A DNA stretch of 64,000 bases from Trypanosoma brucei (taxonomy: Eukaryota): NCBI GenBank assembly GCA_000002445.1, contig CM000207.1, positions 2,993,548-3,057,547 on the forward strand. The letters are read 5' to 3'. This document shows, piece by piece, positions 1 through 64,000 of this stretch; positions within the stretch are counted from its first letter, which is position 1, and each line of letters starts with the position of its first letter. Made by a program: the position numbers and the translations under genes. A model generated the notes under the pieces. That model saw only the letters and a program-made list of their open reading frames with translations. It made no database searches and was not told the DNA's origin.

Positions 1-360
1 GTAGAAATTATCGCCATTACAAAGCCACCAAAGGTTTTGCATGCTTGGAATAAAGGAAATTTGCCGGATTTTAGAAATGTCTGTATTTCAAATATGGGGA
101 AAAAATTAAGGAAGTCAAGAAATAACGTGGATGTCACGAATGAAGCAGTGACTAAAGGCATTGGCACAGCAGCAAATAAAAAAGACAACACAGAAATGTA
201 AGGGAGTATAGCCACCGTTTTGCACACGAGAACTGACCGAACTTGACGAAAAAATAAGGGATTGTACAAATAAAAAGCACAGAGAGATGAACTTATATAG
301 AAGAGAAGGAAGGTTCTTGCTGAAACATCCCTACAACAAAAGAAGAAAAATGTCTCGAAA

Positions 361-1267
361 ATGTCAGTGACCGATACAGAAAGTTGGAATTTAGTTAAGT
401 CCATTAACGCACCGAGACTAATAACATCTCCTGTTCTGGTAGATAATGAAGAACCTCTCACACGTAGACAGCAAGCTAATAAGTCAGCACAGATGCATAA
501 AGAGATGCCAAAGAAAGCACCAGATGCTCTTCCCACGAGCATATCTTATCGAGAGCGGGGATTACAAACAATAACGATGGCAGAACGTGATGCAGAACTA
601 AAGGAACTGTCTTCACGCACTTCCTCCCGTAAGGACGATATAAAATGTGAGCAGTTAGTTGAAGAAATTAGGACACTGCAGCAAGGAATGTGTCTTCAAG
701 CTCTTCAACTGTAACTTACATAGACACCGAGTGCCGGAGTGGAAGCATGGCGTCATCGTCTCGCTAATCAAACTCAACAAACCGACCAAGTGTATGTCAT
801 CGTTCCGGCTCATCACGCTCACTAGAACATTCTTTAGGCTCATGGAGAGGATCGTAGTGGGATGCATCCGAGACACAGTAGAATGTAAGCTACAACCACA
901 GCAAGCTGGTTTCCGTCCGGAGAGGTATACATTAGACGCTCTGATGACACTCACAGACTCCCTGACACATAGAGTAGTAGGAGAGAAAACTGCGGCGGTA
1001 TTCATAGATTATGCCAGGGCATTTGACTCTGCGGATCACAGGTGGATAATAGATGCACGAGAAAGATATGAAGTAGGCATCCACCTCATTGATTGTGTTG
1101 CTAATTTTCTGGATGGACGAACTGCAGTAGTACGAATAAAAAACACCCTCTCAAATAAAAATACAACTCACGTATGGTGTTTTACAAGGTTCCGTGTTGG
1201 GGTCATTGCTATTCATTATCGAAATGGACTCCCTCAGTCCGAAACTAAATGCCATTGTAGCCATTAA
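361..1267 (+). pseudogene. DIRE reverse-transcriptase domain remnant
   Basis: ORFs 361..714 and 659..1267 align by eye to the ingi RT region (LTSCLCKVMERIIAARLRDTVESQLTPQQSGFRPG / AVFVDYEKAID). The frame is broken. Confidence 0.7.
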
Positions 1268-1820
1268 ACACTGCTTCTTCACAGACGACATCACGATAGT
1301 ATGATCTAACACTTACCGGGAAGCTATTAGGCACAAACTGCAAACAGGATTAGATTGAATAGCGAGCTGGTAAGAAGAGCACTATATGGAATTTTCCGCA
1401 GAAAAAACGGAATATAAGTTCTTCAAGGTTAGAGAGACAGAGACTCATTACACCTAATACTGGAAGAGCACAGATAAAAGAAGAGGAATCCCAGACTCCT
1501 TTGGGTGACAATGCAGCCACACAAGGGTGTAAGCAAACATGCTCACACCCTACAAACCGCAGCAAATAAGAGATTAATGAAACTACAGGCTGTTGCATGA
1601 CCTGAATGAGGGAAGAGCACAGAAAGCGTCCGAGATTTTTACTTATCCTTAATCCAGGTAAAATTATGCTATGGGATCGCGACATGGTGATTCAATGCTT
1701 CTCTACCAGACAAGGCGCAGCTTGAACAAGTACATGCGCAGCCGGCACATGTTATCGCTGGTATTCCAAAGTACGCGAATCGGCATGATGCCATGAAGGA
1801 GGTCAACCTTCACAAAATAA

Positions 1821-2702
1821 ATGATAGTGCTCACAGACGAGAAACATAATACTATTGAACAAGGAAGGCGAACGGTAAGGCATCTGCTGATACGGTGGAA
1901 AAAAATATTTCCACTAAGTCATCCGATACACACGCACCTGCAGAGTGTGTTGCACCTGTATGAAGAAGTAGACAGACCGGAGAAATCACACACGGCAAAC
2001 GTATCGCGACTGGCAAGGAGAATTTACTTCAACACAACAACAGCTGGTCTTCATTCCGAGGTTTCCAACAGCGAGAAGAAAAGACACACAATGCAAAGGG
2101 TACGTAGATTCAAAGAATACGATTACCGAGTGTGGGCGGATGGGTCGGTGATACTGAACGAATCCTCTGGTTCCGGCACGAAAATATACCCTACACAAGG
2201 TAATGCGGTAAAAGTGAAGAAAGGAGCAGGCAGGTCAGCATGCAGCTATAGAGCCGAGTGCACAGCCATGGAGGCAGAACTTATGAAACTCAAAACAGTA
2301 ACAAAGATCAACGAGAGTGGAAAAGGAAAAGTGGCAATATTCACAGACTTGTTATATTCATTAATAGAGCTTAAAACAGGTCCTGCAGTGGTGACGGATT
2401 CCATACTACGACGCATATGGGATCTGATCATACACTTCATGAAACTGAGAGTAGCCATGCCGTTTCAGTTTGTGTTTTCGTATTGTAGTATCCAGAGAAA
2501 TTACAAAGTGGAAGACCTCGCAAACAAAGGAAACCACATGCCACAAACCTATCCTGCATGGATCACCGACATTGTCACAGGTATAATGCGCCAATTACGT
2601 AATCAGGTACAACGCGCATTTGCTAAAGGCCAGGGTCCAAACACACACCGCAGTGCTTTACTAAACCATATAGAAACGACAACAAAAAACAAGGAACTAT
2701 AA
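1821..2702 (+). pseudogene. DIRE RNase H domain remnant
   Basis: The 293-aa ORF contains the D..E..D RNase H triad context (WADGSV, RAECTAMEAE, IFTDLLYSL), parallel to ingi WTDGSV / RAECVALEIG / IFSDSLSML. Confidence 0.7.
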
Positions 2703-61273: not shown

Positions 61274-61289
61274 GTGTTAAAATATATTC
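61274..61289 (-). promoter_or_regulatory. VSG 3'UTR 16-mer variant (VSG-16)
   Basis: gtgttaaaatatattc has 1 mismatch. Confidence 0.7.
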
Positions 61290-61322
61290 GAGTAGAAAAA
61301 CAATAAAAAAAAGATGGAGGGA

Positions 61323-62410
61323 TTAAAAAAGTAAGGTCAAAAAAGCAGCCATACGCAGAGCCAATTTCTTATTTACAAGGTAACTGTAATCTTTGCGATA
61401 TTTCTTTTGCATACCATTTGCAATTCCGTTCTTTTGTCATATTAACTGCGTCAGTGGCTGTGTATTCAGTTTTCGCTTTATTATACACTTCTTTCTTTTC
61501 TGTTTTATCTGCTGTATCTGTTTTGGCGTAACCTTCTTGTGGGGGACCCGTTTTACTTGCGATATGCTGTTTTGTTTTTCCAGTGAAATATGATATTAGT
61601 TTGCCTGCGTCCGCAGTGTTGGCAAGATCAGCTAACTTACCTTCTATTTTGTCTTTTTTATGTAAAAGGTGTGTATCTTCTCATTATAAAACTTTTTAAA
61701 GGTCTCTTTGAAGGCTGTCTCCGTTTGTCCTATTTCCGCCTTTACTATTCTGGTTGTTTGGTTGCCAGCTATTTCACTTGTTTTGCTTTTGTCTGTCGTT
61801 GCGAGTTGTATTAAACTAGCTAAATTGCTGTCCTTTGTTAGTTCTTCGTATCTTCGTTTCAACTTTGAGGGTATGTCGGTCGGTCTGTATCGGTGCGCCG
61901 CGCAACACAACCTGGGTAACCTTGCGCCGCAGGAAATTGACCAATCTTCGTTCTGTGTTGGGTTACTGCACGTCGCAGTGTTGCCTTTTTTGCTGTATAG
62001 TTCGATGGTGACTAGGATTTCTGGTTGCTCCTCCACCTCTACAAAAGCGCCTAGGTAGGCGGTGCCTGACGTTTAACTCGCGCTCGCCGCGTAGCCGGCG
62101 TCGGCCCCTTCGCCGCTGCCCAGCTGGCAGCAAGGGTCCCTTTGCCCTTGGCCAATGCTGTTAGCTTCCTTGGTGTGAACACAGCCTATGCGATTAGCTT
62201 GACAGCCTTGATCGTCGCTGGCTGGATCCCGCTGCGTTTCAGCTTGTGCTCGGCATCACTGACTTCCAGTAAACAGTTGTCGGCGTTTATTGCCGTTAGC
62301 GTCGGCTTCTTTGAGGCCTTGACTGTTGACGCTTGTGGTGAGGTGTCTGTTGTGTCGGTGGCAGTGGCTTGTCCTGGCGTCATCCTTGTTATTTTCAGCC
62401 TTCTATACAT
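61323..62410 (-). pseudogene. VSG-16: 5'-truncated VSG-related pseudogene abutting ingi-3
   Basis: The tail NCKWYAKEISQRL.. then KDYSYLVNKKLALRMAAFLTLLF* is frameshifted. ORFs 61644..62036 and 62186..62410(-) give upstream coding. There is no signal peptide. The ingi-3 3' end begins at 62411. Confidence 0.6.
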
Positions 62411-64000
62411 TTTTTTTAAATTTTCTTCGTGCCTTCGTGAGAGTTTCCCCCCACTGGCGCGGCCATCAGCCATCACCATAGAGCCCTGAGATGCTATCGG
62501 TCTGGCGACTGTGGCAGAGTCTCCCTTTTTTTTTATTCAGCCTAATACACTCTCTATAATTTTTTGTTGTAGCTCCGCAGTTGAACGGAATACAGCAGAT
62601 GGGGCGAGAAGCCCCCCACTCCGGACTCTCCAAAAGATGTCAATTAGCAATCCTTTTGTTTTGATTTTTGTTATTCGTTTATTATTCTCTTCCCCTTTTT
62701 CTGTTTCTGTTGCTTGTTGATTGCATACCCCCTCTGTCTCTGAGGGTGTCTGGACTATTCCTACATCCGGTGCTTTTCCTGCTAGCTCCACACTCGGCAA
62801 TAAGGGGGGAAGTTGCAGAATGGAGAGTGGGTTGTATGACTGATACATTAGGGGAGGACTTCACCTGCGGCCGGCTCCGTTCAACGGCAATGAGAAATTG
62901 CGCCAGCCTTTTGGAGAAACATACATTCTGCACACACACACGCCTTCCACCGCAAACCTGACACGTAATTCCTTCAAACCGGGACAGCTCATCAAGTGCA
63001 GCGACGTTTCTTCGCAGTCGCCGCGTTGGCTTGTAACAGCGCGCTCTACTTTCATACCGTGCATCTTCTTTTGATGTAGGATGAGGCCAGTTTTGCTAGC
63101 ACACTGCCTTCCGCATGTCGGGCACACCAACATGGATGTGTTTGTATGCGGGGAATCAGTGGCTCACAATTTTGTGCTTTTGTTGCTTTTAAGCTCGACT
63201 CCCTCACCTTTGTGGAAAGCCTTACAGTGTCGGATGAGGGAGTCCCTGCAACTGAGCACTTTTTGGCACACACCACACTGCACCTCGCCTTTCCCCGGGA
63301 CGTCAACGTTTCCCTCACGGGCACGCTTACGAGGGAATTGCACCACCACCACGGTACCTTCCTCCGTCATTATGCTCTTATGTTTGAATTTCTTGTGTAG
63401 TGACAGGGAAGAACGTGTACCGAAGCTCGCCTCGCACAGGTCACATTGAAACGGCAGCTTCCGTGTATCCTGAGGGGCTGGCACTGCTGGGGCTCTACCA
63501 TCTCCTTGCAATGAGTCTTCGTTCTCTCGCCCCCTTTTCACGCGGCAACTACCGCTGCCTATGCCATGTATTGTTCTAAGGTGGTGTAGTAGTCGGCCTG
63601 GCACTGCGAATTTGGAGGCACAGAGGGTACAATGAAGCACCTGCGGTCTCATCGGGAGTCGTGTGCTCGATGGTAGAGGAACGATCGCCACCACTGGAGG
63701 GGGCTCCGGGGGGATGTCCACTGCAGGTGTTGCATCACCGTATTTGATCCTCCGGAGGGCATCAGCTCGCACAAAGCCGTGTTTGTTTACCATGTGCGTT
63801 ACAGCACTCGACCGGCATTGGTATGTGGCATCACATTCCGTACATTTGGTCGGTTCGGAGGTTCTCTGAAGAGTGCGTGTCGCAACAGTTGGGGCTGTTT
63901 GTATTGTTGGCCCTATCGCTGCATGTTGCGTGTTGCACCATCGGCACTGTGGAGGCACACTCGGGTTGATCTTTCGCAACATCCATCCATAGTGCTTGAA
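62411..64000 (-). mobile_element. ingi-3: inverted ingi copy, 3' ~1.6 kb in window (5' part beyond window end)
   Basis: Poly(T) at 62411-62418 is the ingi poly(A) tail on the minus strand. ORF-track peptides 62511..62720, 62537..62848, 62668..62961 and 62682..62939 are 100% identical to the ingi-2 peptides 48302..48511, 48174..48485, 48061..48354 and 48083..48340. ORF 63164..63982(-) is the zinc-finger region. Confidence 0.9.
63164..63982 (-). pseudogene. ingi-3 C2H2 zinc-finger region (272-aa ORF segment)
   Basis: CTLCASKFAVPGRLLHHLRTIHG, CDLCEASFGTRSSLSLHKKFKHKS, CGVCQKVLSCRDSLIRHCKAFHKG. Confidence 0.8.

Follow-up and report, generated by a model that had tools for sequence, protein, structure and literature searches.

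This 64-kb stretch of the Trypanosoma brucei genome (contig CM000207.1; the window, meaning the whole 64,000 nucleotides analysed) is filled with genes and gene remnants for variant surface glycoproteins (VSGs), raising the question of whether it belongs to a site from which VSGs are expressed or to the archive that is kept silent. We conclude, with a probability of roughly 95%, that the window is a stretch of the silent and presumably promoterless T. brucei VSG archive, a one-directional array of 16 donor cassettes, presumably in a subtelomeric location. An initial annotation, made by reading the sequence, had likewise proposed a silent array, and the VSG domains, a conserved 16-mer, the 70-bp repeats and the excess of pseudogenes all fit that proposal.

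Architecture of the array

The whole 64 kb is a head-to-tail VSG array, and all 16 cassettes lie on the minus strand. Along that strand the order of elements is 70-bp repeat, spacer, VSG, coding sequence for the glycosylphosphatidylinositol (GPI) signal, and 16-mer, and within the VSG an A-type or B-type N-terminal domain is followed by the C-terminal domain and then the GPI signal. Read in the same direction, a 70-bp block follows the preceding cassette's 16-mer by ~150-400 nt, and the next VSG starts 0.7-2.4 kb downstream of the block. Consecutive 16-mers are 2.5-4.8 kb apart, typically ~3.4 kb, with a single exception, a 10.3-kb gap that contains a full-length ingi retroelement and cassette 12. 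Four ingi-clade retroelement remnants break up the array, three of which cut VSGs. A module recurring every ~3.5 kb on the minus strand, with a spacer of 1 to 2.4 kb, had been described in the initial annotation; the strand-specific repetition is far above chance and the upper limit of the spacer holds, whereas the typical spacing and the lower limit both proved somewhat smaller.

Evidence for VSG identity was obtained for 15 of the 16 cassettes, in the form of matches to the Pfam families VSG_B, Trypan_glycop or Trypan_glycop_C, or of phmmer or tblastn matches to named VSGs; cassettes with stops were scanned against Pfam as stop-to-stop pieces of open reading frame (ORF). VSG_B was detected on long minus-strand ORFs in cassettes 1, 3, 6, 13 and 15 and as fragments in cassettes 10 and 11, the A-type domain (Trypan_glycop) was detected in cassettes 2, 12 and 14, and ORF pieces of cassettes 1, 2, 3, 4, 10 and 13 contain the VSG C-terminal domain. 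For cassettes 5, 7, 8 and 9, the link to VSGs comes from named VSG proteins detected by phmmer or tblastn. The earlier count of 16 cassettes therefore has protein-level backing for all but cassette 16, the remainder of which gave no VSG match by Pfam or local phmmer. This weakest of the assignments is suggested by a GPI string (YSYLVNKKLALRMAAFLTLLF followed by a stop, ending 33 nt upstream of the 16-mer), the 16-mer itself and the position in the array.

At up to two mismatches, the 16-mer TGATATATTTTAACAC occurs 12 times, always on the minus strand, compared to an expectation of 0.16, and none of 100 shuffles reached 12 copies. Allowing three mismatches yields 13 minus-strand copies and two plus-strand matches, the latter compatible with a chance expectation of ~1. 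Two decayed minus-strand copies, at 30972-30987 and at 50983-50998 (1-bp deletion), were located at the expected positions by a Hamming-distance scan, giving a total of 15 of the 16 cassettes (12 at up to two mismatches, one at three and two decayed) and not the 16 copies with zero to two mismatches reported at first. Cassette 12 has no 16-mer because it is cut by ingi at 48613. The conserved motif of the VSG 3' untranslated region (3'UTR) quoted in PMC9044945 is literally the same 16-mer, in agreement with its original identification as the canonical VSG-flanking element. In 14 of the 15 cassettes with a 16-mer, a GPI-signal string (of the type SSFLVNKK or SNSFVI, followed by a hydrophobic tail) ends 22-98 nt upstream of it, and the earlier statement that such coding sequence lies just above each 16-mer is thus correct except for the word "each".

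Fourteen 70-bp repeat blocks were identified, 12 of them clear and two decayed, and all are on the minus strand. With a profile derived from the clear copies, nhmmer recovered 13 minus-strand blocks; the 14th, decayed block (~40460-40550) was spotted in the sequence, and the 14 blocks can all be aligned to a consensus in which GGAGAGTGTTGTGAGTGTGTATATAC.AATATTATAATAA occurs. The 15-nt GT-rich core of the repeat has 15 matches over both strands compared to 1.8 expected, and 13 of these are on the minus strand, within 11 of the 14 blocks. The number of blocks and the core named at the outset, which the consensus contains, were both borne out, with the qualification that the full 41-nt core is near-exact (up to three mismatches) at four sites only. 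The cassettes without an upstream block are 11 and 16, both of which adjoin ingi elements. The presence of 70-bp repeats upstream of archival VSGs is the published norm (PMC4155160, PMC4858185).

Analysis with Tandem Repeats Finder (TRF) of the block at 25625..25993 returned 1.9 copies of a 72-nt period and 85 copies of a 3-nt period. The latter is a pure (TTA)85 tract (25738-25993; 256 bp, 97% match) embedded in the upstream 70-bp block of cassette 6 (VSG-1156), and it far exceeds the triplet runs of the other 13 blocks.

Archive, island or expression site

Fifteen of the 16 VSGs are damaged by stops, frameshifts or truncations, leaving cassette 9 as the only uninterrupted one. Cassettes 2, 4, 5, 10, 11 and 14 are multiply fragmented, cassettes 3 and 8 are frameshifted, and cassettes 7, 12 and 16 are cut by ingi and also bear stops. 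The pseudogene excess noted earlier is therefore real, and its exact tally is slightly higher than the ~14 of 16 first given. This proportion is consistent with previous work, in which 749 of 804 analysed array VSGs were pseudogenes, with 70-bp repeats and conserved 3'UTR elements on their flanks (PMC4155160), and in which more than 80% of the VSGs of strain 427 were not immediately functional (PMC7289013).

Several features were sought in the window and not found there. The 64 kb contain no TTAGGG repeats, no tandem arrays of ~50-bp or 177-bp period (TRF), and no tRNA genes or Rfam matches. No ESAG-like (expression site-associated gene) ORFs were found either, as VSGs (sense or antisense), retroelements and the TTA tract account for every ORF of at least 150 aa. 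The ORF inventory, TRF and the TTAGGG scan thus all came out empty, as had been claimed from the first reading for ESAGs, 50-bp repeats and a telomere tract, and these absences, together with that of a 177-bp array, imply that the window is neither an expression site nor a minichromosome.

Plus-strand ORFs of 150-190 aa lie antisense over VSG coding sequence at 31045-31587, 37907-38362, 40949-41443, 41771-42343, 52222-52725 and 59127-59600. Most likely they result from the codon composition of VSGs rather than representing genes.

Several points weigh against the archive reading or temper it. Some of the frameshifts could be assembly errors, which for the truncated end of VSG-1156 is countered by its presence in an independent database entry. 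Transcriptional silence is not readable from the sequence of the window, cassette 16 lacks a VSG match at the protein level, and the window carries no marker of chromosomal position that would separate a subtelomere from an internal VSG island. The last of these would accommodate an array located in a chromosome-internal island, of a kind known to exist (PMC2854126), or on an intermediate chromosome or minichromosome, rather than in the subtelomere of a megabase chromosome. We consider such a location very unlikely, given that 64 kb with 16 VSGs and no housekeeping gene is far larger than the islands described, and that neither a 177-bp repeat array nor a telomere is present. The minichromosome form is rejected, since the VSGs of minichromosomes occur singly at telomeres and are for the most part intact (PMC4155160). 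An origin of the window from a VSG expression site of the bloodstream or metacyclic kind, a telomeric transcription unit, is effectively refuted. In its favour, such sites likewise combine a VSG with 70-bp repeats and the 16-mer, and the block at 25625-25993, with its long TTA tract, exceeds the others in length. Against it, an expression site holds a single VSG at the telomere, accompanied at most by a pseudogene upstream, rather than 16 in a row, its 70-bp repeats extend over kilobases rather than one to two units, and the ESAGs, the telomere repeats and the ~50-bp array are absent.

Individual cassettes and retroelements

The features that make up this stretch of archive are listed in Table 1. 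In cassette 1, an in-frame stop (5108-5110) lies ahead of the last C-terminal part and GPI piece (4901-5107; Trypan_glycop_C, E=2e-10), and the GPI tail is degenerate. Cassette 2 retains Trypan_glycop (E=8e-12; 8739-9506) and Trypan_glycop_C (E=3e-10; 8112-8348) matches in separate ORF pieces, and a GPI string beginning SSSFLVNKKFAV, while the C-terminal domain of cassette 3 (12002-12403) is in a different frame and a stop breaks its GPI string. The coding sequence of cassette 4 is scattered over many short ORF pieces, the N-terminal one weakly matching VSG P0008 (E=7e-4). Different frames of cassette 5 match residues 7-125 of VSG P0004 (E=7e-10) and residues 370-465 of VSG P0008 (E=2e-14) by phmmer, and its GPI string begins DSSFLVNKKLSL. 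Cassette 7 adjoins ingi at 27557 and has an in-frame stop ahead of the GPI string NSSFLVNKKFSL, and cassette 8, for which phmmer detected residues 350-490 of VSG P0008 (E=7e-22) as well as VSG P0003, has the GPI string GSNSFFIKTSPLLLAFLIL followed by a stop.

The VSG_B profile is met in separate ORFs of cassette 10 (profile positions 25-97, 75-172 and 193-341), which also has a Trypan_glycop_C match, and on either side of a stop in cassette 11 (E=1e-41 at 41206-42024; E=8e-6 at 42028-42222). In cassette 12, two frames cover Trypan_glycop profile positions 2-49 and 53-267 of 367, and the 3' part, the 16-mer and the downstream 70-bp block are missing. The long ORF of cassette 13 has no N-terminal ATG, and in-frame stops follow its C-terminal domain (...CKWDG). 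Cassette 14 matches VSG P0016 by tblastn, with downstream pieces in other frames, and cassette 15 has an intact N-terminal domain, an ORF that ends ...THTCKKPL at a stop, and a GPI string that lies in a different frame and is itself interrupted by a stop.

Two cassettes correspond closely to catalogued VSGs. The single ORF of cassette 9 (33609-35051, minus strand) runs from the signal peptide through the GPI string and is identical at 478 of 480 residues (99.6%) to UniProt M4T0H1, "Variant surface glycoprotein 619" of T. brucei; its TREU927 homologue, "VSG, atypical", is 86% identical. The GPI-signal tail (33609-33668) ends ...APILLALSLRA instead of the usual ...LLF. Because this tail is unusual and the homologue is annotated as atypical, the functionality of cassette 9 is uncertain. 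The ORF of cassette 6 (22373-23779, minus strand) is identical at 467 of 469 residues (99.6%) to M4TAX3, "Variant surface glycoprotein 1156", and both end prematurely in the same way, with ...SSEGRRR and a stop; the N-terminal domain is intact, and additional in-frame stops separate the ORF from the GPI string. EATRO1125-style entries were at most 77% identical in the VSG comparisons, and T. equiperdum VSGs 40-51%. We take plain-number names such as 619 and 1156 to follow the Lister 427 VSGnome numbering, and "VSG 1125.x" names presumably denote EATRO1125. Judged by these two VSGs, the source strain is probably Lister 427 or a close relation of it. Derivation from a different Trypanozoon taxon (T. 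evansi, T. equiperdum, T. b. gambiense or T. b. rhodesiense) is unlikely: the T. brucei equiperdum annotation of the best-named ingi match and the VSG identities of 99.6% rather than 100% speak for it, and the naming of the nearest VSG entries, the lower identities to the other isolates and the premature stop common to VSG-1156 and its entry speak against it. A source outside Trypanozoon is rejected. The window copies of VSG-619 and VSG-1156 each depart from the catalogued entry by exactly two substitutions, which could be due to assembly error, to a duplicate or paralogous copy, or to a sister isolate. A literature search for VSG-619 and VSG-1156 by name found nothing.

Table 1. Cassettes, 70-bp repeat blocks and retroelements of the window, with the evidence for each.
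Feature	Position	Strand	Evidence or remark
DIRE-like degenerate ingi-related element	1..4400	+	crosses left window edge; 3' end approximate
Cassette 1, B-type VSG pseudogene	4821..6523	-	VSG_B E=1e-29; exact 16-mer 4821-4836
70-bp block upstream of cassette 1	7794..7915	-	nhmmer E=1e-10; alignment
Cassette 2, A-type VSG pseudogene, several frameshifts	8064..9727	-	16-mer with 2 mismatches
Weak, decayed 70-bp block upstream of cassette 2	11598..11679	-	nhmmer E=0.16; aligns with the others
Cassette 3, B-type VSG pseudogene	11851..13410	-	VSG_B E=2e-59 at 12289-13410; exact 16-mer
70-bp block upstream of cassette 3	14683..14775	-	profile, GT-rich core, alignment
Cassette 4, heavily fragmented VSG pseudogene	14921..16492	-	Trypan_glycop_C E=8e-5 at 15032-15268; 16-mer with 1 mismatch
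70-bp block upstream of cassette 4	17525..17612	-	41-nt core with 1 mismatch; nhmmer E=1.5e-17
Cassette 5, A-type-like VSG pseudogene	17785..19450	-	phmmer; 16-mer with 1 mismatch
70-bp block upstream of cassette 5	21868..21960	-	nhmmer E=8e-11; alignment
Cassette 6, B-type VSG (VSG-1156), C-terminal domain disrupted	22126..23779	-	16-mer with 3 mismatches
70-bp block upstream of cassette 6	25625..25993	-	two units plus (TTA)85; 41-nt core exact
Cassette 7, VSG pseudogene, N-terminus cut by ingi	26182..27556	-	tblastn, VSG P0006 residues 302-432; 16-mer with 1 mismatch
5'-truncated ingi (3' 2.47 kb), short poly(A) end	27557..30026	+	RNase H and C2H2 zinc-finger matches
70-bp block upstream of cassette 7	30753..30840	-	41-nt core, profile, alignment
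Cassette 8, VSG pseudogene, one frameshift near 31861-32036	30972..32628	-	decayed 16-mer, 4 mismatches
70-bp block upstream of cassette 8	33261..33345	-	profile, GT-rich core, alignment
Cassette 9, VSG-619, 480 aa, uninterrupted	33507..35051 (ORF 33609-35051)	-	16-mer with 1 mismatch
70-bp block upstream of cassette 9	37088..37175	-	profile, GT-rich core, alignment
Cassette 10, B-type VSG pseudogene, at least 4 pieces	37316..39024	-	16-mer with 2 mismatches
Decayed 70-bp block upstream of cassette 10	40460..40550	-	seen in sequence; alignment
Cassette 11, B-type VSG pseudogene	40695..42438	-	16-mer with 1 mismatch; GPI tail degenerate
Full-length ingi, 5256 bp	43358..48613	+	RVT_1, RNase_H and zf-C2H2 matches
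Cassette 12, A-type VSG fragment, ends at ingi junction	48614..49714	-	Trypan_glycop match
70-bp block upstream of cassette 12	50745..50833	-	profile, GT-rich core, alignment
Cassette 13, B-type VSG pseudogene	50983..52589	-	VSG_B E=3e-45; decayed 16-mer (1-bp deletion)
70-bp block upstream of cassette 13	54292..54380	-	profile, alignment
Cassette 14, fragmented A-type VSG pseudogene	54521..56064	-	Trypan_glycop E=2e-15 at 55609-55962; 16-mer with 2 mismatches
Weak 70-bp block upstream of cassette 14	57672..57756	-	nhmmer E=0.04; GT-rich core, alignment
Cassette 15, B-type VSG pseudogene, C-terminal end disrupted	57915..59527	-	VSG_B E=5e-34; 16-mer with 1 mismatch
70-bp block upstream of cassette 15	60871..61028	-	two units; TRF period 69, 2.0 copies; 41-nt core, profile
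Cassette 16, putative VSG remnant, badly decayed, N-terminus cut by inverted ingi	61274..62408	-	16-mer with 2 mismatches
ingi 3' end, opposite orientation	62409..64000	-	crosses right edge; C2H2 zinc finger; poly(A) end 62409-62416

The number of retroelements agrees with the four ingi-family elements originally listed, but the family label is correct only at the level of the ingi clade, the leftmost element being DIRE-like. The full-length ingi shares 94% identity over 966 aa with an annotated T. brucei reverse transcriptase and 52% with the "Tbingi protein" of T. grayi; it starts at its 5' end with CCCTGGCGATGCCGGCCACC and ends in a 3' A-run. At least four in-frame stops make it non-coding, with no single intact long ORF, and Pfam detected no endonuclease domain in the ingi ORF pieces tested. 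The truncated copy shares 96.6% identity with 46140-48612 and 91-92% with a T. brucei reverse transcriptase, and the inverted end, which removes the N-terminus of cassette 16, is 96.4% identical to 47021-48613; in a self-comparison, 27557-30023 (+), 46140-48612 (+) and 62409-64000 (-) were mutually 95.5-96.6% identical. The best-named protein match for ingi is annotated as T. brucei equiperdum.

The leftmost element shows 26-42% amino acid identity to ingi reverse transcriptase (residues 27-808) in at least three frames from position 1 to ~3026 (tblastn), a Pfam RVT_1 match at 659-1267 (E=2e-12), RNase H coding sequence and a positive AT skew, and blastn found no nucleotide match between it and the ingi copies of the window. 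It is not ingi proper but a much more divergent, DIRE-like relative, as judged by comparison with ingi sequences only. The element sits where a 70-bp block downstream of cassette 1 would be expected.

No 12-bp target-site duplication was found at the junctions of the full-length or truncated ingi, nor any shared flank directly at these junctions. To the right of the full-length copy (48614-49714) lies a VSG cut about two-thirds into its A-type domain (~position 267 of 367), and to the left (42700-43357) lies non-VSG spacer. Since one flank is a cut VSG and the other is spacer, ~2 kb of array (a VSG 3' end, a 16-mer and a 70-bp block) are missing beside this element, and its junctions suggest deletion or ectopic recombination rather than simple insertion. 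Because the ingi junctions lack target-site duplications, the missing VSG ends would have been removed by such events. We propose only tentatively, at somewhat less than even odds, that ectopic recombination between ingi copies, or deletion coupled to insertion, is an active route by which archive VSGs are turned into fragments. If so, this would add only a local example to the rearrangement through ingi and RIME that is already known in broad outline (PMC2854126). Cassettes 12-16 are bracketed by two ingi 3' ends in inverted orientation, 47021-48613 (+) and 62409-64000 (-), 96% identical, and this pair, were the same proposal true, would be a substrate for inverting four cassettes.

Proposed role and comparison with known systems

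Based on established knowledge of VSGs, the cassettes would be silent in place and would serve as templates for duplicative gene conversion into an active telomeric expression site. The upstream homology for conversion would come from the 70-bp repeat, for which this function has been shown experimentally (PMC4858185), and the downstream homology from the C-terminal coding region and 3'UTR, as previously reported (PMC4155160). Pseudogenes may donate segments to mosaic VSGs by segmental conversion, a use for which there is precedent (PMC3708902). For an expressed copy to reach high VSG mRNA levels, the 16-mer is needed in its 3'UTR (PMC9044945); the 16-mer would act only at that stage, stabilising the VSG mRNA. 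The ingi copies would be dead retroposons. In Lister 427, long VSG arrays of this kind lie in subtelomeres that are heterozygous and not transcribed (PMC6784898).

The organisation of the array is already known from the literature in every respect and is a textbook arrangement. The significance of the window beyond correct annotation is therefore slight, and its one practical value lies in illustrating clearly how cassettes are built and in what states of decay they occur, with one intact cassette and 15 damaged, three of them cut by retroposons.

A bloodstream expression site, which sometimes has an upstream VSG pseudogene, combines the elements it shares with the window (70-bp repeats, VSG and 16-mer) with an RNA polymerase I promoter, ESAGs 1-12, kilobases of 70-bp repeats, a single terminal VSG and a telomere; ESAG-like ORFs, a kilobase-long 70-bp tract, a single telomeric VSG and telomere repeats are not encountered in the window. 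Among the ingi, RIME and DIRE elements of T. brucei, ingi shares with the full copy its 5.26-kb length, reverse transcriptase, RNase H and C2H2 zinc fingers, a 5' sequence of the CCCTGGCG type, a 3' A-run and coding sequence that is 91-94% identical. In contrast to autonomous ingi, all copies in the window are defective through in-frame stops or truncation and have no detectable 12-bp target-site duplications. The leftmost element resembles DIRE in its ingi-related reverse transcriptase and RNase H coding sequence, high divergence and many frame disruptions.

The closest likeness is to the silent subtelomeric VSG arrays described in the TREU927 genome, the Lister 427 VSGnome and the phased Lister 427 assembly. 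In these arrays, as in the window, cassettes run head-to-tail in one direction, one to two 70-bp units lie ~1-2 kb upstream of each VSG, A-type and B-type VSGs are mixed and carry the conserved 3'UTR 16-mer, more than 80-90% of the genes are pseudogenes, and ingi and DIRE elements are interspersed; in addition, two of the window's VSGs are essentially identical to catalogued ones. Nothing substantial distinguishes the window from such arrays, the minor differences being the (TTA)85 expansion, the ingi junctions without target-site duplications, and the two-residue departures from the catalogued VSG-619 and VSG-1156.

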